Of a DNA stretch of 64,000 bases, positions 22,263 through 60,335 are shown one piece after another. How positions within the stretch are numbered: the stretch's first letter is position 1; each line of letters begins with the position of its first letter. The translations under genes were made by a program, and so were the position numbers. The notes under the pieces are model-generated. The model was given only the letters and a program-made list of their open reading frames with translations, was not told where the DNA came from and ran no database searches. The DNA comes from an uncultured Rickettsiales bacterium (GTDB lineage Bacteria > Pseudomonadota > Alphaproteobacteria > Rickettsiales > RI-342): the NCBI GenBank assembly GCA_964435165.1, contig CAYSXY010000002.1:8126-72125 (forward strand), given 5' to 3'.

Positions 22263-22514
22263 ATGGGTTCAACCATGCTTTTATTGCTAATTTTACTGCT
22301 GTTGCCGTCTCCTGCCTTTGCCTATATCGATCCGGGCACCGGCAGCCTCATTTTTCAGGCATTGGTAGCCATGCTTGCCGGGGTGCTGGTGTTTTTCAAC
22401 ACGCTGAAAATCAAGGTATTGCAATGGCTGGGCAAACTGCCTCCACCGGAAGAGAGCGAGGCAGACGATTTGGACCAGCGCCCTTCATCACATAAAGATG
22501 ATCATGTCGGCTGA
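22263..22514 (+). CDS. small membrane protein with YIDPGTGS motif
   Basis: Two hydrophobic helices (LLLLILLLLPSPAFA; LIFQALVAMLAGVLVFF). Overlaps the next gene by 17 nt. The start is uncertain (22245 GTG, 22263 or 22275 ATG). Confidence 0.45.
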   Translation: MGSTMLLLLILLLLPSPAFAYIDPGTGSLIFQALVAMLAGVLVFFNTLKIKVLQWLGKLPPPEESEADDLDQRPSSHKDDHVG

Positions 22515-23883
22515 GCCGCACCCGGCCTCATTTCGTGACCCCAAGGCCCACATATGCTGTCATGACGGGCGCATATTACGCATGTTGACTGACGAGTATC
22601 TGCCGGACTACCGCCAATTGATGGATAGTGGGCTTTATGATGCCTTACAGGAAAAGCAGTGGCTTATTAGCCATCACGAACTCTCAGCCAATGACGCGCC
22701 GGAAGGCGTGGACGCTGCGCTGGTGCTGGAGCATCCCGTCATTCCACTCATCACCTATCCCTATGAATGGTGCTTCTCGCAGTTGAAAGAGGCCGCGATC
22801 CTGACCCTGAAGATTCAGCAATTGGCCATGCGCTGCGATATGGAGTTGAAAGATGCCTCGGCATTCAACCTGCAGTGGCAGGAAGGGCGCTGGCTGCACA
22901 TCGATACGGCGTCGTTCACACGCTATAAAGAAGGGGCGCCCTGGGTGGCCTATCAGCAATTCTGCCGCCACTTCCTCGCGCCACTATTGCTGATGGCTTA
23001 TGGAGACTTACGCGCGAACGCGCTGATGCGCGTCCATCTGGACGGCATTCCGCTGGAGTTGGCCTCCACCCTGCTGCCCTATAAAACCCGATTAAAGCCC
23101 GCTATATTGATGCATATTCACTGGCATGCCCGTTCGTTGCAATCGGCCATGCAAGGTGGGGCAGGCAAGCGCGACCACCAGGTGCCCAAAGCACGACTTG
23201 AAAAGCTCATTGATCACCTGACATTGACGGTTCAGGGTTTGTCGCTTGCCAAGACTCTGACACGCTGGGGCGATTATTATACCGATACCAATTACAGCGA
23301 CGCGGCGCGCCTGCACAAAGAGCAACTGGTGCAGCAATGGGTCGCTGAGATGGCACCCTCCACCCTGTGGGATTTAGGCGCCAATACCGGCCATTACAGT
23401 AAGATCGCGCAAGGACAAGGTGCGAAAGTAGTGGCGGTGGATGAAGACCCGCTGGCGGTTGAGCGGCTCTATCACACCTTGGGGCGTGGCAATGATGCGC
23501 TGCAATGCCTGCGGATTGATCTGACCAATCCATCTCCAGCACTTGGCTGGGCGCATAAAGAGCGCGCCAGCCTGCAGCAGCGCTGCAATGCAGATATGTG
23601 TATGGCTCTGGCCTTAATTCATCATTTGACCATTGGCTGCAACATTCCTTTTTCGCATGTTGCTGGCTGGTTCAGCCGACTGGCGCCAACGCTGCTCATT
23701 GAATTTGTCGATAAAGCCGACTCACAAATTCAGGAAATGCTGCAACACCGCGAAGATGTGTTCAGTGATTACAATCTGGCATCGTTTCGCACTGCCTTTG
23801 GCGAGTATTATGACATCGTGCGCGATGAGCCGATCACAGACAGTCAGCGACGCCTGCTGCTCATGCGTCGTCGTGAGGCATAA
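22498..23883 (+). CDS. class I SAM-dependent methyltransferase with a large N-terminal domain
   Basis: SAM motif I LWDLGANTGHYS, followed by VVAVDEDP. The roughly 280 aa N-terminal domain (ASFRDPKA...) is seen in NoeA-like methyltransferases, recognised from memory. Confidence 0.6.
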   Translation: MIMSAEPHPASFRDPKAHICCHDGRILRMLTDEYLPDYRQLMDSGLYDALQEKQWLISHHELSANDAPEGVDAALVLEHPVIPLITYPYEWCFSQLKEAAILTLKIQQLAMRCDMELKDASAFNLQWQEGRWLHIDTASFTRYKEGAPWVAYQQFCRHFLAPLLLMAYGDLRANALMRVHLDGIPLELASTLLPYKTRLKPAILMHIHWHARSLQSAMQGGAGKRDHQVPKARLEKLIDHLTLTVQGLSLAKTLTRWGDYYTDTNYSDAARLHKEQLVQQWVAEMAPSTLWDLGANTGHYSKIAQGQGAKVVAVDEDPLAVERLYHTLGRGNDALQCLRIDLTNPSPALGWAHKERASLQQRCNADMCMALALIHHLTIGCNIPFSHVAGWFSRLAPTLLIEFVDKADSQIQEMLQHREDVFSDYNLASFRTAFGEYYDIVRDEPITDSQRRLLLMRRREA

Positions 23884-23886
23884 GAG

Positions 23887-25527
23887 ATGGTGAGCAAATC
23901 AACTTTGCCAGCCTATTGGTATCTTCCGGCTGTGACCGGGCTTATCGCCCCGTTGGAAGCCTATCGCATTGGCCATGATTGGTGGTCCGTCGGCGACACG
24001 TTGCTGCCAATTATGCTGATTATCCTGTTTGCGTATGCGGTGGCAGCGTTGGTCTATTGGCGTACAAAAAACGGGCCATTTTCCTTACTCATGGCGAGCA
24101 GCGCCACCTACCTATTGTTCAAATATGAAGAATTGACGATAGCCGTGAGTGCTATTGGGCCATGGATAGTCCATGATACGTTTCCAATCTTCATCGCGAT
24201 GATGATGATTGCGCTCATGCTTCGGCTGCTTGGCCATGTGCTGCGCCAGCCAAACGCTCTGCTGGCTCGCCGAGCGGTGCATGTGTTGATTCTCGTTCAC
24301 GCCGGGGTGCTCGCCGCGCTTGCAGCTCCGGTTGCTATCTCACATTCATGGCTGAATCATGACAAGACAGCATCACATGAGATGAGCATGGAAGCCGTGG
24401 ACGTCACGTCACCTGACCGCGAACTGCCGGATATCTATTATATTATTCCGGATGGTTATGCGAATGCGCGCCATGTGTTGCAGCCACTATATGGCATGGA
24501 GGCCAACCCGTTACTGCCGTTTTTAAGAGAAAAAGGCTTCTATATCGCTGAGGATAGCCGGAGCAATTATGTGCAGACAATGCTGTCGATACCTTCCAGC
24601 CTGAATATGGAATATCTGCAAACCATCTATCCGGAAATGAATCCGAAGGAAGCGAGTCGGGCTCCTTTATCCGGTTTGGTAAAGAATAACACCGTGATGA
24701 ATAACCTTCGTCATTTGGGATATGATATCAATATCCTTGAAAATGGTTTTTTGGATCGCGAAGAATCTAATGCGCTGATGTCCCTCCACGATAGGGTGAT
24801 CAAGATGTCACCGCTAACATTACTGACTTTCTTTCAGGCGGGGTACAATTTTAATCGCTTACATATTCAGTTGATTGAGGATGGAATCGCTGCGATCAAA
24901 CAGGCGGCACACCGCACAAATCACGCAAACCCTGTATTTTTTCTCGCACATTTTATCAATCCTCACCCCCCTTTCCTGGCAACCAGGGATGGGTGGATTG
25001 AGCCGGGGCCTCTCTACCGACTGTCTGATGGATCACACTTAATCGATTGGTGGGGCATGCATGACCTGCATGGCGATAATCGAGAAGAACGCCAAGCCTA
25101 TTATCGTGAAGCGTACCGTGACCAATTACTCTATTTCAATACACGCATCATGGAGATGGTTGAGACAATATTGGCGCATAATGCACGTCCGGTGTTGATT
25201 ATACTGCAGGCAGATCATGGTCCAGGCTCGCTCTGGCGTTGGGATGTGGCAGACAAGCAGGCGATCGGGCCTGCCAGTATCAATGAGCGTACCGGCATCA
25301 TCAATGCCTATTATTTTCATGACCAGCGCTATGATGCGCTATATCCGCACATCACCCCCGTCAATAGCTTTCGGGTAATGCTCAACCAGTATTTTGGACA
25401 ATCCTTACCTTTGCTGGATGATCGCGTCTTTGTCTCATTGTGGGAGCGGCCCTACGATTTTCGTGACGTCACGTCCCAACTGCGCGACATGAATCATAAC
25501 GAGGCCAGCAGGCCGGGTCAGCCTTGA
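23887..25527 (+). CDS. membrane-anchored sulfatase-like (alkaline phosphatase superfamily) hydrolase/transferase
   Basis: About five N-terminal TM helices, then PDIYYIIPDGY, FLAHFINPHPPF and ILQADHGPG, which are typical of LTA-synthase / phosphoethanolamine-transferase-like sulfatase folds. Confidence 0.6.
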   Translation: MVSKSTLPAYWYLPAVTGLIAPLEAYRIGHDWWSVGDTLLPIMLIILFAYAVAALVYWRTKNGPFSLLMASSATYLLFKYEELTIAVSAIGPWIVHDTFPIFIAMMMIALMLRLLGHVLRQPNALLARRAVHVLILVHAGVLAALAAPVAISHSWLNHDKTASHEMSMEAVDVTSPDRELPDIYYIIPDGYANARHVLQPLYGMEANPLLPFLREKGFYIAEDSRSNYVQTMLSIPSSLNMEYLQTIYPEMNPKEASRAPLSGLVKNNTVMNNLRHLGYDINILENGFLDREESNALMSLHDRVIKMSPLTLLTFFQAGYNFNRLHIQLIEDGIAAIKQAAHRTNHANPVFFLAHFINPHPPFLATRDGWIEPGPLYRLSDGSHLIDWWGMHDLHGDNREERQAYYREAYRDQLLYFNTRIMEMVETILAHNARPVLIILQADHGPGSLWRWDVADKQAIGPASINERTGIINAYYFHDQRYDALYPHITPVNSFRVMLNQYFGQSLPLLDDRVFVSLWERPYDFRDVTSQLRDMNHNEASRPGQP

Positions 25528-25745
25528 GCTATGCCTCATCGCTGAGTCAGTAGACGAAGCGGGAGGCAAAACAAAAAGTGGCCACCAGCCTTGAGCCAGC
25601 CTCATGGGGATGCAACGCATCACCGGAGGCGAACACAATAACTCCAAGCCAGCCTTGATCTGCTCTATGTGGATCCGCACGCCCACTGCAAGCGCTTATC
25701 TCACGTCGAGCATCGCTGAGTCAGTAGATGAAGCGGGAGGTGATA
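25519..25745. repeat. degenerate tandem repeats (about 64-67 bp period) bounded by two 30 bp near-identical copies
   Basis: cagccttgagNNNgcctcat recurs at 25519, 25586 and, degraded, at 25650. catcgctgagtcagtagaYgaagcgggagg occurs at 25537-25566 and 25711-25740 with 1 mismatch. The first unit overlaps the stop codon of the sulfatase-like gene. Confidence 0.6.
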
Positions 25746-25746
25746 A

Positions 25747-25849
25747 TATAGCCATTCACATTAATTTTCATACAATCTGAATGGCTATGAGGCCGCGACT
25801 CCTGCCTGCGCCATAGTTGGCGCGTAAGCCTTAGTGGGAAAAGCTATAG
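25747..25849 (+). repeat. 103 bp dispersed two-hairpin repeat, copy 1
   Basis: 100 of 103 positions are identical to 60165..60267. Hairpin 1 pairs atagccattca (25748-25758) with tgaatggctat (25778-25788). Hairpin 2 pairs tgcgcc with ggcgcg (25807-25824). Confidence 0.85.
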
Positions 25850-25977
25850 TCGTTTAAAGTTAAATGACTATATAAATGTGTCATTGCCGGGCCTGACCCG
25901 GCACAATCCGGATGACTGGTTTGAAAGTAACACGCGATAACGTTGCGATAGAGCAAGGTAAAGCTTCAGGTTTCTCG

Positions 25978-28444: not shown

Positions 28445-29740
28445 TCAACGCTCCCTGAATGCTTCGGAGGTGACTTTAAGCAATGGTTTGAGCAAATATT
28501 GCATCACCGTCTTGCTACCGGTTTTGATATCAGCAGAGGCTTGCATGCCAGGGGTGATAGGCAACTGGCCCGGGAGGTCTCCAAGGTAGTTTTTATTGGT
28601 ACGGATAATCACTTCAAAATAGATTTCACCGGATTTCTCATCCGTGTAGGAATCGGCTGAGACGGATTGCACCGTCCCTTCTAATCCACCAAATCGCATA
28701 TAATCATAGGTATTGACCTTCACCAGCGCATGCTGGCCATTGGTCACAAACCCGACATCATTGGGGTTAAGTCGCGCTTCGACGACAAGATTGTCACTGA
28801 TCGGCACTATTTCCATAATCACCTCTCCGGGTTTGACAACCCCGCCGAGCGTATGATTTTTGAGTGATTTTACCACGCCATCAATGGGACTTTTAATGGT
28901 GGTACGGAGCACCTGATCGGTAGCGCGGGTCAGCATTTCCTGCGAGCGGGCAATTTCCAATTCAGTATCACGCAGCAGTTCCTGCGCCTGGTTTTGATAG
29001 GTCACTTCTTCGCTTCGCAGGCGCTCTTTTGTTTCTTTTAACGCAGCACGTGAACGAGGAATGGCAACGTCAATAATTTCCAAACGACCTGTTAATTCCT
29101 GTACTTCACTCTCTAGCTGAAGGTGGTCGAGTTTCGACGTCAGTTTGTCTTTAATCAACTCGTTGGAAATGCGCATTTTTTCACGCAACACATTCAGGTT
29201 TTTCTTAATGGAGGCGCGCTCGGTCTCCAACTGGGTGACATCCAGTTCTTTTTGTTGCACCTGTTCATGTAATACGCTCAAGCTACTCTCTAACCGGCGG
29301 CGATTGCCTTCAAATGTCATAATTTCCGAGTGTACCAGTTCAGGCCGATATTCCCCATTCTCATTGGGAATGGATAGCCGCTCATCACCTCGTGCTTCAG
29401 CCATCAGGCGCAAGCGCTTGAGTTTTAGGCCTTCCAAATTCACCATTAATTCTTCTTTATTGGCAACAAAGGAGGTGATGTTCAGCTGCATGAGTTCTTC
29501 ACCCTGACTGACATGTCCACCTTCTTTCACGTGGATTTTTTCGATAATACCGCCTTCCAAATGCTGGATGGTTTGAATTTGCTCCTGTGGCACGATTTCG
29601 CCTTGCGCGACAGACACTTCTTCCACACGCGCAAAAAATGCCCACACCATCATCCCGGCCAGTAACATCATGACGAGGCGAGCCATCAGTGGCAGGTTGC
29701 TGCGTGGTGGTTGCTCCAATAATTCATCGAGTTTACTCAC
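28445..29740 (-). CDS. type I secretion membrane fusion protein, HlyD family
   Basis: N-terminal TM helix, lipoyl-like hairpin (GGIIEKIHVKEGGHVSQGEELMQL), a long coiled coil and a C-terminal beta domain ending TVMQYLLKPL. The GTG start overlaps the ABC stop (GTGA). Confidence 0.9.
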   Translation of the reverse strand: MSKLDELLEQPPRSNLPLMARLVMMLLAGMMVWAFFARVEEVSVAQGEIVPQEQIQTIQHLEGGIIEKIHVKEGGHVSQGEELMQLNITSFVANKEELMVNLEGLKLKRLRLMAEARGDERLSIPNENGEYRPELVHSEIMTFEGNRRRLESSLSVLHEQVQQKELDVTQLETERASIKKNLNVLREKMRISNELIKDKLTSKLDHLQLESEVQELTGRLEIIDVAIPRSRAALKETKERLRSEEVTYQNQAQELLRDTELEIARSQEMLTRATDQVLRTTIKSPIDGVVKSLKNHTLGGVVKPGEVIMEIVPISDNLVVEARLNPNDVGFVTNGQHALVKVNTYDYMRFGGLEGTVQSVSADSYTDEKSGEIYFEVIIRTNKNYLGDLPGQLPITPGMQASADIKTGSKTVMQYLLKPLLKVTSEAFRER

Positions 29741-31623
29741 GACGTGCCTCCTTGCCCTGTAGGTGGCATGGGTGCCGCAGGAGTATGTGGCTGTTGCGTT
29801 GCAGGCCCTGATGGTGCTGCTGGTTGTGGCGTGGCTGCGGTGGCTGGTGCCGATGGTTGGGCTGGTGCCGCAGACTGAGGGCTTGCCTGCGTGGTCTGCG
29901 GATGCGCATCATCTGGTTTGCCGCTCAACCTGGCCATCACCTTGTCCCCTGGGCCCATCATGGCAATGCGGCCGCGTTCTAGGACGATAATTCGGTGGCA
30001 CATGGTGAGCAGGGGAATGGAATGCGTCGCCAAAATAATCGTGCGGTGGGTGGCCAGTTCACGAATTGTCTGTGCAAGGCGCATTTCCGCCTCATTATCC
30101 AGATTGCTGGTAATTTCATCAAACAGGAGCACGGGGGGATTTTTCAGCAAAGCACGGGCAATGGCGAGCCGCTGACGCTGACCACCGGAGAGCTTAAACC
30201 CACCTTCGCCAATTTCTGTGGCATAGCCGTCAGGTAAATCACTAATAAACCCATCGGCATCAGCGAGCTTGGCCGCTTTGAGCACGACCTCATCCGGTGC
30301 CTCGGGCCAGGATTTGGTGATGTTATCGCGAATGGTTCCATCGAACAGGAAGCATTCCTGCGGCACATAGCCAACCCATTGCGACAATTGCTCGCGCGTA
30401 AACTGGCTGATATCCGCATTATCCAACAAAATGCGGCCCTTTTGCGGTTCATAAAGCCCCTGCAGACATTTAATCAGCGTGGTTTTGCCGCAGCCATTGC
30501 GCCCAACCAGGGCTGTCATCTCGCCGGGTTGAAACAGGCAACTTACCTCTTCCAATATTGGTTGTTGTGCATCATAGCCAAAGGTGAATTGCTCAACCGC
30601 CATATGTCCCATTGGGCGTTCACGCTCAATACCCGCTTCTTCACGCTCGGAGTCAAGGTGAAATAGCCGGTCCAGCCGAACGATGGCCTGTTTACAGGCC
30701 GCATAATTTTTCCAGTTGCCCAGCAATTGATTGAGTGGGGCGATGATCCGGCTGGCCAGCATATTAGCGGCGATCAGCGAGCCAATGGTCATCTCGCGCT
30801 CAATAATCGCGAGCGCCCCGGTCGTCACCATCATCACGGTGGTGAGCATCATCAGGCTGTGGCCTAAGCTGATGAATCCATCAGTACGCGAGCCGCGCTC
30901 ATAGGCCTGTGTGATGGATTCGGCATGCACATCTTCCCATTTCGGGGCGATGATTTTATCAATCATCAATGCTTTCACCGTGGTGCGCCCGCCCATCAGT
31001 TCGGCGACCATCGCATCGCGGTGCAGGCCTTTATGCCGCTCCTTGGCGGTGTCGACATCCTGCACATGCGATGAAAACCAGGTGAGCAGAAGAAAAAGCG
31101 GCACCACCAGCAGCAACACCCAGGCAATGGGCATGGCGATGATGCAAATCACAACGATGAAAATAATGGCAAACGGCAAATCAGCCAGCAACAATGCCGC
31201 CGGGCCGGAGAAAACACCGCGAACAGTGGCAGCATCCTGAAACAGTGATTGCCAATAGCTGGTGGGGCGCGATTCCAATGTCAGCAGCGGAAGGCTGGTG
31301 AGCTTGTGATAGAGGGCGCGGCCCAGATGCGCGTCAATATGCAGTGCGGTGGATTGCAGCATGCGACTGCGTGCCTGTCGCAATAAATAGTCAAACCCCA
31401 GTGCCAGCAACACCCCCACCACCAGCGCATAGAGCGTGCTGATACCATTATGCCCCACTACCCGGTCATACACTTGCAGGGTGAAGAGCGGTACAGCCAG
31501 CGCCAGCATGTTGGAGAAAAAGGAAACCGCCATCACCTCGCCAAACCGCGGCAATAGGGGACGCAGAATATCTTTTAACCATAGTGCATGAGGTGATTTC
31601 CACCATCCGATCATGATGTTCAA
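29737..31623 (-). CDS. type I secretion system permease/ATPase (PrtD-like, no C39 peptidase domain) with a Pro/Ala-rich C-terminal tail
   Basis: TMD opening FTLQVYDRVV, Walker A GRNGCGKTTL, signature LSGGQRQRLAIARA and Walker B VLLFDEITSNLD. The last 60 aa or so are PQTTQASPQSAAPAQPSAPATAATPQPAAP.... Confidence 0.9.
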   Translation of the reverse strand: MNIMIGWWKSPHALWLKDILRPLLPRFGEVMAVSFFSNMLALAVPLFTLQVYDRVVGHNGISTLYALVVGVLLALGFDYLLRQARSRMLQSTALHIDAHLGRALYHKLTSLPLLTLESRPTSYWQSLFQDAATVRGVFSGPAALLLADLPFAIIFIVVICIIAMPIAWVLLLVVPLFLLLTWFSSHVQDVDTAKERHKGLHRDAMVAELMGGRTTVKALMIDKIIAPKWEDVHAESITQAYERGSRTDGFISLGHSLMMLTTVMMVTTGALAIIEREMTIGSLIAANMLASRIIAPLNQLLGNWKNYAACKQAIVRLDRLFHLDSEREEAGIERERPMGHMAVEQFTFGYDAQQPILEEVSCLFQPGEMTALVGRNGCGKTTLIKCLQGLYEPQKGRILLDNADISQFTREQLSQWVGYVPQECFLFDGTIRDNITKSWPEAPDEVVLKAAKLADADGFISDLPDGYATEIGEGGFKLSGGQRQRLAIARALLKNPPVLLFDEITSNLDNEAEMRLAQTIRELATHRTIILATHSIPLLTMCHRIIVLERGRIAMMGPGDKVMARLSGKPDDAHPQTTQASPQSAAPAQPSAPATAATPQPAAPSGPATQQPHTPAAPMPPTGQGGTS

Positions 31624-31733: not shown

Positions 31734-33284
31734 GTGTGGCGTAGCGTTGATGCTATGGGCGGATGCACAACAGATATTGGTGGTTTGAGTGAGCAGCTAG
31801 CTACGCTGCGGCAGATGCGCGCGGATGATCAGACTGCCTATCGCTCCATGCGCGATGCGGTGATCATCGCCTCGCTTCCACATAGTAGTAATTACAGTAA
31901 AGACCGTGAGCGGGCCTGGTATCAGCGGGCGCGGGCGCGTCAGGGCGACCATGTGGAGACGGTGCTGTATGGTGCCATCTGGGAGGCATTGCGGCCCAAT
32001 GAGCGGCTGGTGATCGAGCAGCTCTATTACGAACATCCGCCGCTGGTGGCCGAGACGACCGGGCTGTATAAAGCGCTTCACGCCTTTGCAGAGGCGCGCG
32101 AGTCCGGCGACACGGCGCTGGCCCGGCAGCATCTACGCCATGCATTGTGGGAGCTGCTGCACAACTCGCCCTACCCGGCGCGTAATGACCTGGAGCGCGA
32201 CAAGGCCAGGCGGCGCCGCACGGCGCAAGCCATGATGCTCAATAGTATGAGCTGCTGTTTAAAGAGCCTGCCCACGCCGGATTATATCATCGAACCATTG
32301 CGGCAGCGCTATGCCAAAATGCCGCTGGAAAACTTATTGCCTGATATTGTGTTTCCGCTGGAGGAAAATGCCCGCACCATCGCCGAGGAAATTCAGCGGA
32401 TTAATGCACAGATGCAGCAGGGAATTGAAAAACTCACTGCCACCGAGCAAAAATCTATTGTCACAGACGCTGTCACCATTCCAGAAGCGACTCATGCATT
32501 TTCTGATCTCTACATGGGCATTGTTGAGACCGGGACTCGCACGCTCATTGATCAGAAGCTCGAAAAACTTGCCCAGCGAGGCTTAAACGAAGCCGAGATC
32601 AGAACAGCTCTCGAAGAAGTCTTGAGCAATCACCAAAATAACACGATCCCCTATAAGACAGAAATGCTCGCCATACATTTTCATGGCAAACTGAACGAGG
32701 TTCGGATGCGACAGGCAGGGCATACGCATTATATGTGGTTGTCCATGGATGACGACCGTGTGCGTTCGAGTCACAGCGCAAATGATGGCCAAATTTTCTC
32801 GTTTGATAATCCGCCACCCACCGGCCACCCCGGCGAAGATTATAATTGCCGCTGTCAGGCTGCACCGGTGCAGTTGGCAGCGCTGAACCTACCGCCTGCC
32901 CTCATTGCCGCCGCCATCGCAGCGACAAAAGCGACCATCAAGCGATCACAGCAAAAGATCAAAGATGCTGCGGCGAAGGTCAGAAAAAATCCTGTGGTGC
33001 GGGGAGAAAAAGCACCTAAAGGCGGCAGGAAAGATACGGACTGGTCATTTGATAAAAATAAGTCTCCAAAAAAATGGGAAAATCAAAAAAGAGAGCGAGA
33101 TTGGACGGATGAGGAGATTACAAAGGCTATAAAGCATGGTGATGCGTATCGAACTGAGAATTACAGAACTAACAAGCCAGCTACCTTATATGAATACAAT
33201 GGAAAGTATGTGGTCAGAGATGATACTACAAAAGAAATCATTCAGATTGGTTGCAAAGGATTTGAGCATCCATCGCTACCATAG
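31734..33284 (+). CDS. MuF (phage Mu F / SPP1 gp7) domain protein with a lysine-rich C-terminal module: candidate polymorphic toxin
   Basis: The MuF signature WLSMDDDRVRSSHSANDGQIFSFDNPPPTGHPGEDYNCRC lies at about 32730-32858. It is followed by a hydrophobic linker (LAALNLPPALIAAAIAA) and a basic, AT-rich tail of about 110 aa. The start is uncertain (GTG 31734 or ATG 31755). Confidence 0.7.
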   Translation: MWRSVDAMGGCTTDIGGLSEQLATLRQMRADDQTAYRSMRDAVIIASLPHSSNYSKDRERAWYQRARARQGDHVETVLYGAIWEALRPNERLVIEQLYYEHPPLVAETTGLYKALHAFAEARESGDTALARQHLRHALWELLHNSPYPARNDLERDKARRRRTAQAMMLNSMSCCLKSLPTPDYIIEPLRQRYAKMPLENLLPDIVFPLEENARTIAEEIQRINAQMQQGIEKLTATEQKSIVTDAVTIPEATHAFSDLYMGIVETGTRTLIDQKLEKLAQRGLNEAEIRTALEEVLSNHQNNTIPYKTEMLAIHFHGKLNEVRMRQAGHTHYMWLSMDDDRVRSSHSANDGQIFSFDNPPPTGHPGEDYNCRCQAAPVQLAALNLPPALIAAAIAATKATIKRSQQKIKDAAAKVRKNPVVRGEKAPKGGRKDTDWSFDKNKSPKKWENQKRERDWTDEEITKAIKHGDAYRTENYRTNKPATLYEYNGKYVVRDDTTKEIIQIGCKGFEHPSLP

Positions 33285-33293
33285 GAGGAGATT

Positions 33294-33521
33294 ATGAAAA
33301 CGATAAAACTTTATGTACAGCTCTTAGGTGAGGCTGTTCCTACTGTTCGCCCTACAGAAGCTGAAGTGTTGAGTAACGGCCTGTATAAGCTGCTACCAAC
33401 AGAGAGCTATAATCCTGAGGATGAAGTATGGGAGTTTCTCCCAGGCAGTATTGTGAGCAGAAAGGAAATAAAAAATATTAAAGGTCAAAACATGAATGTT
33501 GCAATAGCACCTGAAAAATAA
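33294..33521 (+). CDS. candidate cognate immunity protein (75 aa)
   Basis: Starts 9 nt after the toxin stop and has a strong SD (tAGGAGGagattATG). It shares the AT-rich composition of the toxin C-terminal module. No family recognised. Confidence 0.45.
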   Translation: MKTIKLYVQLLGEAVPTVRPTEAEVLSNGLYKLLPTESYNPEDEVWEFLPGSIVSRKEIKNIKGQNMNVAIAPEK

Positions 33522-33588
33522 TCTAAGCTTTTTATTAAATCGGATAGGGCTTCATTTACTCTACTATCGCTGGACAATCGTCAGCGAT

Positions 33589-34035
33589 GTGCGGCCAAAA
33601 GTCGATGAGGAAATCACTAAGCAGGCTGAGCAGGGTAAGACGGAAAATGAGATAGATGAACACCTGACGCAGGTGATCGCACATTATCAGGATACGACCA
33701 TTCCCTACAAAACGCAGATGCTGGCGACGCATAGCTTTATACTATTGATTCATTTCTTAACAGGCATGAATCAGCGCTCAAATGGCGCTAAGCCTCACGC
33801 GCCATAAGGCGCGACGCGTAGTCACGCTTGCTCGCCATTCCAACGATTGGAATGGCGAGAATAGTAAGCTCAGCGAATTGGCGATGCGTGAGCAGGGCTA
33901 CACCACTATATCTGGCATTCGCAGGATGACCCCAAAGTACGGCCCGACCATGCCGCCAATGATGGCCAGATTTTTTCTCTTGATAACCCGCCACCCACGG
34001 ACCACCCGGGCGAAGATTACAAATGGCCGGAATGA
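33589..34035 (+). pseudogene. orphan, disrupted MuF-domain fragment (paralogue of the 3' half of the 31734 gene)
   Basis: The block 33589-33732 (VDEEITKQAEQGKTENEIDEHLTQVIAHYQDTTIPYKTQMLATH) matches IDQKLEKLAQRGLNEAEIRTALEEVLSNHQNNTIPYKTEMLAIH. The block 33925-34035 (DDPKVRPDHAANDGQIFSLDNPPPTDHPGEDYKWPE*) matches DDDRVRSSHSANDGQIFSFDNPPPTGHPGEDY. Both blocks are in the same frame, separated by about 123 extra bp that contain stop codons. Confidence 0.65.
33785..33865 (-). repeat. diverged, inverted member of the two-hairpin repeat family, inserted in the MuF remnant
   Basis: ctaagcctcacgcgccataaggcgcg...ctcgccattcc-aacgatt-ggaatggcgag parallels the reverse complement of the 103 bp repeat (ctaaggcttacgcgccaactatggcgc...atagccattca-loop-tgaatggctat). 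It has the same order of a GC hairpin followed by a gccatt / aatggc hairpin. Confidence 0.4.
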
Positions 34036-34048
34036 ACGCCAGACAGGC

Positions 34049-34606
34049 TTAAGCGGTCAATTTATGGGTATATTGAACAAATCTCTCGACAGTGCGCGTT
34101 ACGTCGCGCGACACCACAGGGTGATGTATGGTGCCATCCTCATCGAATTGCTGAAAAGCATCGGACACAGTGATCATACTGGGATAGACATAAGTGCCAA
34201 GTGCCTCCAGCGGCACGCGAAAATGCAGCAGCCCTTTGATGCCACCCTGCAGTGATGGCGAGGCGGACAAGAGCAGGGCAGATTTACCGGCAAGAGGCAC
34301 TGGGCGCAGACGCGAAATCCAATCAATGATATTTTTCGCGCTGCCGGGGTACGACCAGTTATATTCCGGCAGGGCGATCATCAGGCCATCATGCGCCATA
34401 ATCTGGTCAGCAAGGCGCTGGGCGGCTTCCGGCAGGCCATTATGCTCAAACAAATGGTCGTTATAGGCGGGCATATCCAGGGTGCAGTAATCTACCAAAG
34501 TGACATTCGCATCCTGCGCTTCGGCGCGTCCGGCGGCATAAGTGACGAGCTTGCGGTTGACAGAGCCTTCACGAGCTGAAGCGGCAAAGGCGAGTAGAGA
34601 AACCAT
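34049..34606 (-). CDS. NADPH-dependent FMN reductase family oxidoreductase
   Basis: FMN_red motifs (LLAFAASAREGSVNRKL at the N-terminus, LPEYNWSYPGSAKNIIDW). The track ORF extends to 34651; the MVSLLAF start at 34606 fits the family. Confidence 0.8.
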   Translation of the reverse strand: MVSLLAFAASAREGSVNRKLVTYAAGRAEAQDANVTLVDYCTLDMPAYNDHLFEHNGLPEAAQRLADQIMAHDGLMIALPEYNWSYPGSAKNIIDWISRLRPVPLAGKSALLLSASPSLQGGIKGLLHFRVPLEALGTYVYPSMITVSDAFQQFDEDGTIHHPVVSRDVTRTVERFVQYTHKLTA

Positions 34607-34767
34607 AATAACCCCTGATAATGCACATATATGATAAGGCCTAGTCGTCATACCGGTTAATACAGGCCTGTCAATGCACAGACAAAGCCGTTACATGCTG
34701 AAAAGAGATGCTTGCACGGCATCATCTTCCTTAACAACCGCGGCCGGATGCCGCATAATAGCGCGCT

Positions 34768-36084
34768 ATGGATAAAGAAGACATACTTGCGAATTTTCTG
34801 GATGCCCTGTATCGCGAAATCCGCGACATGGAAATGGCGTGCCGAATGCAGGCGGCGCCAGATGATCTGCGACCACCGATAGACGTACACCATGATGCGG
34901 TTCGGGCGATTTTATCGAAACAGCAGGGCTATGCGCCGGGCCAACGCCTGTCCGTCACATGGTTGTCGCATGATATCATGGCGCTCCGTCAACGTGCACG
35001 CTGGCTACGCAGCGGGCCACATGTCTGGTGGGAAGGACGTGATCCACACTATGCTAAAACACGGGATCAATGCATTGCCTTCAAGCGTCAGTTGATTCGC
35101 AGCAAGGCGGAGATTGATATTCCGCTGGAGATATTACAGCAGGACCTTGCAGATTTCGCCAGGCGTTATGTCAATGAACGGCATTTGCTGGATGGCGCTC
35201 TGTATGAGCGTAACGCCCAAAAATGGGCGCGGCGTGCCGGTCGCCATCACTGGCAGGCAGTCTCAGGTGAGGAGTTCTGGAAAGGGCTACGTTATACGGC
35301 GCGTTATTTTTCCAGCTTGCTGCAGCGATTAGCAGAGCAGGGGGCTCCCGGCCTGTTAGCGCATGAAGCAAAAACGCAACAGACGGTAACGCCCTCAGAC
35401 CAGTTAGCTGAAAGTCGGCGGGCACTTAAAAATTTATGGCTACAAATTGTGCATCCGCTTGTACTACGCGGCAGCATTGTGCCGGATGAGACGCGTGAGC
35501 ATCATTATCACCTGGATACATCACGCCACATTCCTGAGCGCCATTGGCAGCAAATGGGCAGTGAAGCTGCAGAACTGGCGGATGCCTATGACCGCTATAC
35601 GGTGATGTTTGCGGCGATGACAGCCGATACGGTGGATTATCATTATAAGGCATTGCTGGACGACCTGGACCAGCAGGTGATAGATGTAGCAGCGCTGATT
35701 CGGGAAATCGAGGCGCTGGAACGTGGCGGCAACAAGCTTGAGCTGCATCAACTCGAGCGGATGGTCCGTGAATTGGAAAATGAAGAACTCAAGCGCCGAC
35801 TGCTTGAATTGCTCGAGAAATATAAGGCCGATACGAGTGGAAATGCGACGCTGAATGCTACGGAAGCAGCCAATCAGGTCATGGATGAAGTTGATCAGCA
35901 AATCGACAAGCTGGAGCAGGCACATTTTGATTTTCTGGCGACGCAGTTCACTGTCTATGAAGAATCGCAGGATGTGGTGCGCAAACTGGCCGGGCAGGGG
36001 CTGAATATTGCTGGCAAATTTGTTGAAGCGGCAGCCGCCATGGCCGCGGCACGGCAGCAGGATCGCGGCAATCGCGGGCGGTGA
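34768..36084 (+). CDS. hypothetical 438 aa protein with a coiled-coil C-terminal half
   Basis: Long ORF with genome-like codon usage. Has no signal peptide or TM helix. Contains heptad-like acidic segments (IREIEALERGGNKLELHQLERMVRELENEELKRRLLELLEKYK). No family recognised. Confidence 0.5.
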   Translation: MDKEDILANFLDALYREIRDMEMACRMQAAPDDLRPPIDVHHDAVRAILSKQQGYAPGQRLSVTWLSHDIMALRQRARWLRSGPHVWWEGRDPHYAKTRDQCIAFKRQLIRSKAEIDIPLEILQQDLADFARRYVNERHLLDGALYERNAQKWARRAGRHHWQAVSGEEFWKGLRYTARYFSSLLQRLAEQGAPGLLAHEAKTQQTVTPSDQLAESRRALKNLWLQIVHPLVLRGSIVPDETREHHYHLDTSRHIPERHWQQMGSEAAELADAYDRYTVMFAAMTADTVDYHYKALLDDLDQQVIDVAALIREIEALERGGNKLELHQLERMVRELENEELKRRLLELLEKYKADTSGNATLNATEAANQVMDEVDQQIDKLEQAHFDFLATQFTVYEESQDVVRKLAGQGLNIAGKFVEAAAAMAAARQQDRGNRGR

Positions 36085-36096
36085 CGGACGAAACGC

Positions 36097-37395
36097 CTAG
36101 CGTAAGAATAATGCTGGGGTGAGTTGCCCCATCGCCTGCAGCAGGCGATAAACAGCCGTGTAATAATCATAGCGTGCAGAGGCGGCGTCGATTTTCGCAC
36201 GGAATAATTCATTTTCCGCATCCAGTACATTAATAGCCGTCTCGCTCCCTGCATCCCGTAATTTGGTACGAGAGTCATAGACTTCCGCCGCAATGTTGAC
36301 GGCATTTTCCAATAAATCGAGCCGTTTCTGACTGACAGTTAAGGAGGTCCAGGCCAGCTTGACTTCCTGCACGGTCTGTCGCATCGCCTGGCGGTAATTC
36401 TCACCGGTTGCTTCATAATTAGCGGCGGCTTGTTTAACACGGGCAACATCGGCTCCGCCATTATAGAGGTTCCAGCTCATCCGCCCTGTGACCGAAAATC
36501 GTGTCTCCGTGCCGGACACGCCACTGACATTATCGTCATAATTACCGGCAGATACCAGATCAACGGACGGGTAATAAGCAGATTTGGCGACATCGCGGGC
36601 CAGGCTGGCCACTTCCACCCCATATTTACTGGCGAGTAACCCTCGGTTGGCCTGCAGGGCGGCCTGAATCGCTTCATCAATACTCGGTGGTATCTGTTTG
36701 AAAGGAATATCCGGAATCTGCAGGTTGCCTAAATCCGGTTCACGGTCAAACACCTGCGTGAAGCGGCTGATCGCATCTTTCAGATTGCCCTGAAAGGCAG
36801 TGTAACGCTCTTTGGCGATTTGCAGGCGTGATTTGGCTTGAAGCACATCCACGGCAATGCCGGAGCCGCGCTGTACGCGTTCATCCTCTAACTGCAACTG
36901 CCGTTTCAATGTCTCAATATTCTCAAGTGACAGATTGTTAAGTTCAATCTGTCGCAGAATATCCAGATAGGAATTAATAGCTTCGAACATGACCTGCTGC
37001 TGCACCTGTTCGAGCGTCATTTCCGCGACGTCGACGCCAATTTTGGCGGACTCATGCGATGAGCTAACCCGGTAGCCGGTAAAAAGGGGTTGCGTAACGG
37101 TCAGGCTGTGGCTATCGGTCGGATAATTCGTATAATTACCCGCAGGGTTGGTTTCAGTACGATCAATCGTCTCATATCCAATATTAACTGCCGCATCAAC
37201 GCGCGGCAAATATCCGCCTAGCGCTTCCCGTTCGGCAGCTTCTGAGGCATCCACACCCGATTCAGCGGCTTTAATCAGCGGATGGTCGGCCAGCAGGTCC
37301 TGAATCAAATGCGGTAGTGGCCCGGCGCTAGCCGAAGAACTGCCAAACCATACAATACATGTGGCGAACAAGACAGAATACCGCGCAGTCACCAT
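36097..37395 (-). CDS. tolC: TolC family type I secretion outer membrane protein
   Basis: Signal peptide (VLFATCIVWFGSSSASA) after the ATG at 37395, which has the SD tGAGGAGc. Shows the two-fold OEP repeat architecture with typical TolC motifs (LLADHPLIKAAE, YLPRVD, ALQANRGLLA, YYPSVDL). The track ORF extends to 37500. Confidence 0.85.
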   Translation of the reverse strand: MVTARYSVLFATCIVWFGSSSASAGPLPHLIQDLLADHPLIKAAESGVDASEAAEREALGGYLPRVDAAVNIGYETIDRTETNPAGNYTNYPTDSHSLTVTQPLFTGYRVSSSHESAKIGVDVAEMTLEQVQQQVMFEAINSYLDILRQIELNNLSLENIETLKRQLQLEDERVQRGSGIAVDVLQAKSRLQIAKERYTAFQGNLKDAISRFTQVFDREPDLGNLQIPDIPFKQIPPSIDEAIQAALQANRGLLASKYGVEVASLARDVAKSAYYPSVDLVSAGNYDDNVSGVSGTETRFSVTGRMSWNLYNGGADVARVKQAAANYEATGENYRQAMRQTVQEVKLAWTSLTVSQKRLDLLENAVNIAAEVYDSRTKLRDAGSETAINVLDAENELFRAKIDAASARYDYYTAVYRLLQAMGQLTPALFLR

Positions 37396-37577
37396 GCTCC
37401 TCAATGCACGAGGATAAAGTGAGGGTCGTCGCCTGTAGCGACGGTGAGTCAAAACGTAATGGCGGCTCATAACCAAGGTTGCTAACAATGACACAGCCAA
37501 AGCTGCTTATGCATTCTTTATGAATGGGCCATGTAAACAATCCCTTAATTGATAAAAAGCAGGGAGATAATTTATGC

Positions 37578-60131: not shown

Positions 60132-60164
60132 CATGTGATCTCTGTCGTGTCTATTACCGTTATT

Positions 60165-60267
60165 TATAGCCGTTCACATTAATTTTCATACAATCTGAAT
60201 GGCTATGAGGCCGCGACTGCTGCCCGCGCCATAGTTGGCGCGTAAGCCTTAGTGGGAAAAGCTATAG
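60165..60267 (+). repeat. 103 bp dispersed two-hairpin repeat, copy 2
   Basis: 100 of 103 positions are identical to 25747..25849. Located 34 bp after the ATP12 stop and about 70 bp before the ABC-like gene. Confidence 0.85.
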
Positions 60268-60335
60268 GCGTATTTCCCGCCATTTCTTGTCGAATAAGAT
60301 ACCCAACGGCTCGATTTTCACCTATATAGCCCGCG

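Follow-up and report, generated by a model that had tools for sequence, protein, structure and literature searches.

The 64,000 nucleotides of uncultured Rickettsiales DNA analysed here (the window) carry an intact polymorphic toxin gene of the MuF family, and directly behind this gene and its presumed immunity partner lies a second piece of MuF sequence that is interrupted by extra DNA. A first-pass annotation, made from the letters alone, took this orphan piece for the displaced 3' end of an older allele, later hit by a small mobile hairpin element. The locus raises the question of where such an orphan comes from, what broke it, and whether it still does anything behind a toxin gene that is complete. 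The features that bear on this question are collected in Table 1.

Table 1. Positions of the toxin gene, the orphan and its parts, the repeat copies and neighbouring genes in the window
Feature	Position	Strand	Remarks
Repeat, second copy	25745..25852	-	Intergenic, between convergent genes; nhmmer; covariance model 130 bits
T1SS gene, HlyD	28445-29740		
T1SS gene, ABC	29737-31623	-	
Intact MuF-family polymorphic toxin gene	31734..33284	+	516-aa ORF; Pfam, TIGR01641
Presumed cognate immunity gene	33294..33521	+	75 aa; 9 nt after the toxin stop, behind GGAGGAG
Orphan block 1, TIVSDVRPKVDEEITKQAEQGKTENEIDEHLTQVIAHYQDTTIPYKTQMLATH	33571..33732	+	Residues ~262-315 of the intact protein; allele type B; tblastn, blastp, family alignment
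Inserted copy of the dispersed hairpin repeat	33731..33864	+	~126 nt (33735-33860); ends uncertain by ~6 nt
Hairpin B of the repeat	33831..33859	.	Perfect 13-bp stem, CTCGCCATTCCAA / TTGGAATGGCGAG; stem kept in the other copies
Orphan block 2a, (N S) K L S E L A M R E Q G Y T	33860..33903	+	Homologous, +1 frame relative to block 1
1-nt deletion site	33903..33904	+	ACx to AC in a Thr codon; codon alignment with 9 family genes
Orphan block 2b, HYIWHSQDDPKVRPDHAANDGQIFSLDNPPPTDHPGEDY	33904..34020	+	Residues ~332-370 of the intact protein
Tail past the end of homology	34021..34048	+	KWPE* at 34021-34035
FMN-reductase gene	34049-34651	Convergent to orphan	Pfam FMN_red, E 6e-32
T1SS gene, TolC-like	36097-37500		
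Repeat, third copy	60163..60270	-	Intergenic; nhmmer (60165-60272) E 1.7e-28 against the 25.7-kb copy; covariance model 127.7 bits

The intact toxin gene, its neighbours and its relatives

MuF polymorphic toxins have been described mainly from Firmicutes, as genes carried by prophages beside those for portal and terminase (Jamet et al. 2017, PMC5576092), and as toxins of temperate phages also by Zhang et al. 2012 (PMC3482391). Like these toxins, the intact gene of the window is predicted to encode a MuF/SPP1-gp7 domain joined to a variable C-terminal toxin domain, in this case a colicin-E5-like tRNase, and it is followed by a small immunity ORF. From N to C terminus, the protein is laid out as a family-specific N-terminal region, the MuF domain, a linker, a GKVRKNP-type junction and the tRNase domain, with Pfam matches to Phage_Mu_F (PF04233) at residues 273-376 (E 9e-18, 65 bits against a cutoff of 29.6) and to Colicin_E5 (PF12106) at residues 443-506 (E 1e-9, 38.6 bits against a cutoff of 25). 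It is matched as well by TIGR01641 (E 1e-17, 64.5 bits against a cutoff of 39.65) and by PHROG head-morphogenesis families, and the family alignment places its likely true start at the ATG at 31755. The 75-aa ORF behind it has no family match in Pfam, PHROGs or NCBIfam, and a homologous ORF of 73-75 aa stands behind every E5-bearing relative, with identities of 55/75 in locus L003, 55/75 in L004 and 37/75 in L007. This conserved pairing suggests that the ORF encodes the immunity protein, and that the two genes form the toxin/immunity pair expected for a polymorphic toxin.

Across the 16 relatives, the C-terminal domains differ downstream of a GK(V/I)(R/F)K(N/D)P junction in the family alignment. 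The toxin domain of the window protein is 86% identical to that of P0001 while its N-terminal region is only 55% identical, and the toxin domain and immunity gene (window 32976-33570) have a GC content of 0.39, whereas the window has 0.52 and the orphan 0.50-0.56. Because the cassette is more conserved than its carrier and differs from the window in GC content (0.39 vs 0.52), horizontal cassette exchange is indicated, and the active toxin/immunity cassette looks imported. Over the relatives as a whole, identities of the E5 toxin domain are 86%, 75% and 60%, and those of the carrier N-terminal region 52-55%.

Unlike the MuF toxins described so far, the window locus has T1SS genes, an FMN-reductase gene and the rpsL operon around it, its neighbours being T1SS ABC/HlyD/TolC, FMN reductase, rpsL-fusA, hisS, prfA and clpB. 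The intact toxin gene does not have the portal and terminase neighbours of the prophage-borne examples (PMC5576092), and no portal or terminase gene was found within 10 kb in any of the eight relatives' loci retrieved (0/8), two of which have only an integrase nearby. Viral contigs of IMG/VR match only the MuF domain itself. The T1SS ABC protein of the window matches an LssB-type profile only from profile position 136 and lacks the N-terminal C39 peptidase-like domain, and in L004 (6733-8118) and L007 (14770-16515) the family gene has RTX-type proteins encoded nearby. Large ORFs without a Pfam match lie at 34768-36084 (+), 22498-23883 (+) and 23887-25527 (+) of the window; the one of 438 aa between the FMN-reductase and TolC-like genes, which forms a singleton cluster, is also without a match in PHROGs or NCBIfam and has no relation to the toxin family.

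The family is small, with 16 close members and 25 matches in all in a word-indexed search, and its N-terminal region is common to only 29 cluster representatives of 1.84 billion in an exhaustive phmmer search. Two of its loci are instructive with respect to the orphan. In L007 (GCA_964484565.1, 10001-14855), a full E5 gene and a homologous immunity gene are followed by three orphan modules, each made up of a MuF fragment, a different toxin domain and an immunity gene; the arms of these modules match the main gene at 97-100% identity, and there is a frameshift within the second module. In L008 (11300-14700), the main gene ends exactly at the NCRC motif, and many small ORFs and MuF fragments lie downstream. 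Judged by these loci, orphan arrays, of which there is no mention in PMC5576092, are a property of the MuF toxin family to which the window gene belongs, and their occurrence in relatives makes it reasonable to read the window orphan as a displaced allele. Elsewhere in the family, the 632-aa protein P0010 (L005, 10001-11899) has ~110 C-terminal residues that resemble a separate 114-aa immunity ORF of L007 (...LEDVEFKEEGPFYYFS...), and would be either a toxin-immunity fusion or an artefact of sequencing or gene calling.

A second MuF allele, broken at three points

When the window is searched by tblastn with the intact 516-aa protein, a second family match is returned at 33565-34020 (E 6e-24); each of the 16 close family members hits this interval too, and no other family fragments were found in the window. 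With the insert removed, the orphan passes Pfam Phage_Mu_F at E 3.6e-13 (50.7 bits against a cutoff of 29.6). The homology first proposed for two blocks of this region is thus significant, at 52% protein and 58% nucleotide identity to the intact gene. Its limits required revision at one end only. Homology does not start at the GTG at 33589, as first thought, but at ~33571 (TIVSDVRPK), at the junction after the PEATDAF motif and 49 nt past the immunity stop; and the residue ranges originally given for the two blocks, 283-330 and 355-385, exceed by ~15 the numbers obtained when counting from the ORF start at 31734. Counted from that start, the orphan at 33571-34020 corresponds to residues ~262-370, which is the MuF domain alone. 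At the other end, homology stops right after GEDY (34020) and the remnant closes as KWPE*, both as annotated. In proteins of the family this point is followed by NCRC, ~40 residues of linker, the GK(V/I)(R/F)K(N/D)P junction and then the variable toxin domain. The orphan has neither NCRC motif nor linker nor toxin domain past GEDY, it is without an immunity gene as well, and no toxin domain belonging to it was found elsewhere in the window. Only 28 nt separate the end of homology from the stop codon (34049-34051) of the convergent FMN-reductase gene.

The orphan is not simply a copy of its neighbour. In a blastp comparison with the family, the reconstructed orphan protein is 52% identical to the intact neighbour, against 68-69% to P0008, P0010 and P0002, and in the family alignment the MuF domains split just after PEATDAF into two types: type A, which reads GTRxLIDxELEKL... 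and includes the intact gene, and type B, which reads DVRxKIxxEIxKQAxQGKTExEI... and includes the orphan. By these sequence comparisons the orphan is a different allele and not a recent duplicate. The first-pass description of it as the displaced 3' end of an older allele therefore holds as regards a different allele (52% vs 68%), and fails as regards the 3' end, since what remains is an internal piece of the MuF domain; "older" and "displaced" are plausible terms for a history that is reconstructed. High DNA similarity of the orphan to the intact gene is confined to one stretch of 72 nt, 32777-32848 against 33954-34025, at 85% identity. Within this stretch identical residues have the same codon in 12/21 cases, as against 8/32 elsewhere (Fisher p = 0.02), and relatives have no comparable rise; it may represent an old gene-conversion tract or crossover point, and the signal is a weak one.

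Both likenesses to and differences from known orphans follow from this composition. As with the orphan modules of CdiA-CT/CdiI, Rhs-CT and MafB-CT loci (Zhang et al.), the fragment lies directly behind a full-length toxin/immunity pair, shares homology with the main gene's conserved part, and has neither a 5' end nor a start. Unlike those orphans it consists of the carrier domain only and is broken by an insertion and a frameshift, and the absence of an alternative toxin domain and a cognate immunity gene sets it apart from classical orphan modules. It differs also from the L007 orphans, with their near-identical arms, in having only 58% nucleotide identity to the active gene, which makes it a poor recombination substrate and, with the 72-nt stretch as the sole similar segment, unfit as a switchable cassette. 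The likeness to orphan modules that had been proposed from the window alone is therefore borne out by the arrays of L007 and L008, and is limited by the lack of toxin domain and immunity gene.

The interruption of the orphan is more intricate than it first appeared. Between the MLA(T/I)H and DD(P/D)(K/R)VR motifs the orphan has 192 nt (33733-33924) and the intact gene 69 nt (32679-32747), as reported at the outset; positions 33589 and 33925 do lie in one reading frame, and the first in-frame stop, a TAA at 33805-33807, does fall within the extra DNA. The extra DNA does not, however, run up to the second block. Forty-four nucleotides that had been overlooked (33860-33903) read NSKLSELAMREQGYT, the counterpart of HGKLNEVRMRQAGHT in the intact gene, in the +1 frame; blastn matches to L008/L009 begin at window position 33860, and to L005 at 33866. 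A 1-nt gap follows (GGC TAC AC- CAC TAT), which brings back the frame of block 1, and if one base (N) is restored at 33903/33904 the orphan reads GYTHYIW, the exact family consensus. The net excess of 123 nt was correctly given, and is the sum of an insertion of ~126-130 nt, a shortening by one or two codons at the insertion site, and the separate 1-nt deletion. Either the native sequence at the insertion site must fall one or two codons short of that of every relative, or the insertion was accompanied by a small deletion.

Because an insertion of ~126-130 nt is no multiple of three, and the frame is reset by a separate 1-nt deletion, the frame shared by the outer blocks is coincidental and not, as had been supposed, kept by the insertion; and because the stop in that frame sits inside the insert, the shared frame has no functional meaning. 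The orphan thus has three lesions: the insertion, which brings a stop and a +1 frame shift, the 1-nt deletion 40 nt further on, and the 3' truncation at GEDY. A different delimitation of the insertion, as 87 nt between the 11-nt direct repeats GCGACGCATAG and GCGACGCGTAG, was rejected, as its removal fails to restore the family reading.

A dispersed hairpin repeat

At the site that matches the insertion, all nine of the aligned family genes are uninterrupted and run CA(T/C) TT(T/C) to AA(T/C) GG. AAG (H-F-N-G-K). In the orphan, ATAG direct repeats at 33731-33734 and 33861-33864 flank the insert, with 126 nt between them, and the insert folds as DNA at -41.6 kcal/mol (z = -6.2 against shuffled sequence). 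Two further copies exist in the window, and finding them depended on structure as well as sequence: a search of the window for the hairpin core with up to 3 mismatches gave no second match, and blastn-short of the insert against the window missed both copies, which were recovered by hairpin inventory, alignment, Smith-Waterman and nhmmer only. The hairpin inventory pointed to 25748-25788, where a GCCATTC...GAATGGC core is held in common with the insert, and the insert aligned to the 25.7-kb copy with a Smith-Waterman score of 61, shuffles scoring 27.9 +/- 4.8. A three-sequence HMM and a covariance model, run with filters off, return exactly three sites in the window, the insert among them at 33733-33862 (+).

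The copies, three in 64 kb, are 108-130 nt in size, the one in the orphan being ~37-45 nt longer near its left end. All have in common a left end (T)ATAGCTTT, a hairpin A (CGCGCC..GGCGCG) and hairpin B, and five stem pairs are kept by compensatory changes, as with ATA/TAT in place of CTC/GAG. All three are bracketed by (T)ATAG...(T)ATA(G/T/A), the two outside the orphan by TATAG...TATA(T/A). A target duplication of 4-5 bp would give such a bracket, and in the two copies outside the orphan so would terminal inverted repeats (TATAGC/GCTATA); because the TATA at the repeat ends is palindromic, both readings fit the three copies. The intergenic region of the 25.7-kb copy also contains a 30-nt direct repeat, CATCGCTGAGTCAGTAGA(C/T)GAAGCGGGAGG, at 25537-25566 and 25711-25740, the two units being 97% identical and 174 nt apart.

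Outside the window the repeat has no convincing counterpart among the data searched. Across 185,579 species genomes the hairpin core had one match, a Flavobacteriales terminator, and the hairpin-A core had one in JGI metagenome contigs, inside a GC-rich coding region; both were set aside as chance. Neither the perfect core nor a degenerate consensus matched viral contigs, and an HMM search of the relatives' loci found no copy. Rfam gave nothing at gathering level for the region, the whole window or the 25.7-kb copy, the best weak match, to Pseudomonas sRNA P9, scoring 22 bits where the cutoff is 43 and being rejected. Searches for tRNA and tmRNA genes were negative, no terminator or promoter accounts for the insert, neither hairpin is followed by a T-run on either strand, and no transposase or RAYT partner for the repeat was found within the 64-kb window. 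An origin of the hairpin as a quasi-palindrome made by template switching, suggested by a 10-nt match to the intact gene (TGCTCGCCAT), was discarded as well, since the sister copies place the hairpin in the repeat.

Small non-autonomous repeats of bacteria include MITEs (such as Correia elements), REP/BIME sequences and IS200/IS605-derived palindrome-associated elements; of these, REP/BIME are imperfect palindromes, extragenic and of high copy number, and are accompanied by a RAYT transposase. Like members of these classes, the window repeat is ~100-130 nt long, non-coding, endowed with stable hairpins, dispersed and otherwise intergenic, and a MITE-like element would likewise be short, non-coding and present in dispersed copies. 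Its hairpins are palindromic, and two of the three copies in the 64 kb are extragenic. It matches no Rfam family, and within the 64 kb only three copies and no transposase or RAYT partner were found. On sequence and predicted structure, the insert can be accepted as a small dispersed hairpin element for which MITE, REP-like and IS200/IS605-derived are all candidate classes. The hairpin element proposed in the first-pass annotation is in this sense upheld by its two further copies, and its mobility is what those dispersed copies, three in one window, would imply.

Origin and fate of the orphan

The reading preferred here, with a probability of about 0.8, is that a second MuF toxin allele has left at 33571-34035 a pseudogene fragment, decaying and without function, directly downstream of an active toxin/immunity pair, and the orphan probably does nothing today. 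A type-B allele would formerly have occupied the locus, until the low-GC cassette of E5 toxin and immunity gene, together with a type-A MuF segment, recombined in upstream. The old MuF segment would have been left stranded, in the same manner as orphan modules arise at CdiA, Rhs and MafB loci and as can be seen in L007 and L008, and the stranded piece, without selection, would have lost its toxin/immunity tail. A small non-autonomous repeat, otherwise intergenic only, would then have colonised it, a site where such a repeat could be tolerated because a pseudogene fragment is not under selection. In a search for sister strains the contig's tested proteins were all singletons at 90% identity, and the only other contig with the immunity protein is 100% identical to the window DNA, so that the order of these events is a reconstruction.

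A different origin is conceivable, in which the orphan came along with the E5/immunity cassette as the already truncated first member of a donor's orphan array. The homologous E5 pair of L007 does have an orphan MuF module within ~30-55 nt, a spacing that includes the 49 nt seen in the window. The orphan's GC content, however, is like that of the host window and unlike that of the cassette, blastn homology to the L003/L004 cassettes ends at 33508-33511, ahead of the orphan, and at its 3' end the orphan has the same codons as the resident intact gene more often than elsewhere; a joint arrival is unlikely, if still worth keeping in mind. Nor do the two blocks seem to be independent fragments from separate displacements. 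Relatives such as L007 and L008 do stack several short MuF fragments, but the blocks of the window orphan are of the same allele type and follow one another in order and without a break along the protein (...MLATH | (F)N(G/S)KLSE...), and what separates them is precisely one unit of a repeat that has other copies in the window, making two separate fragments a highly improbable arrangement.

Function has likewise been considered for both the orphan and its insert. It would be very surprising if the ORF at 33589-33807 were expressed as a small protein of 72 aa with a GTG start, a free-standing N-terminal half of a MuF domain. Its 72 codons are open and its first 48 residues are MuF-like, yet no promoter-like site is present on the + strand between 33521 and 33589, no Shine-Dalgarno sequence precedes 33589, and no gene was called over the orphan in an independent Logan assembly of the same DNA; moreover, the last 24 residues are translated repeat DNA, and further downstream the homology resumes in two other frame segments, a pattern characteristic of a gene that has been disrupted. 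Better founded, and nevertheless quite unlikely, is the proposal that the insert is no transposable element and is instead a structured functional module, copied by recombination and serving as an RNA stabiliser, terminator or protein-binding site, as REP can be. Maintenance of hairpins A and B by compensatory changes would be expected of such a module, the other copies lie in intergenic regions at gene ends, and neither a transposase nor unambiguous terminal inverted repeats nor an unambiguous target duplication could be made out. Against it, the orphan copy sits inside dead coding sequence with no obvious gene to serve, the hairpins lack a T-run and the repeat an Rfam match, and the (T)ATAG-like direct repeats that bracket all three copies are what insertion events would give.

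As a pseudogene fragment, and an ordinary product of decay at a toxin locus, the orphan is best regarded as a molecular fossil, which would record past allele turnover at a toxin locus and point to a small hairpin repeat that has been active in the genome. It also offers a caution for annotation, as a reading frame common to both sides of an insertion can arise by accident. Its wider value is contextual: a MuF toxin lineage outside prophages is a more interesting lead than the orphan itself, the MuF toxin architecture being found here and in eight relatives in ordinary chromosomal settings with cassette exchange, and with orphan arrays in L007 and L008. It is possible, though the proposal is a tentative one and more doubtful than not, that the locus represents a rare lineage of MuF polymorphic toxins outside a phage context (chromosomal, no portal or terminase nearby), which would swap toxin/immunity cassettes at the GKVRKNP-type junction, build orphan arrays in the manner of CdiA/Rhs, and thereby imply a delivery other than by the phage head, possibly by the flanking T1SS, and that the insert would in addition belong to a new family of small hairpin elements duplicating or targeting (T)ATAG. 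If the non-prophage setting holds, the delivery of MuF toxins without a phage head would become testable in this lineage.
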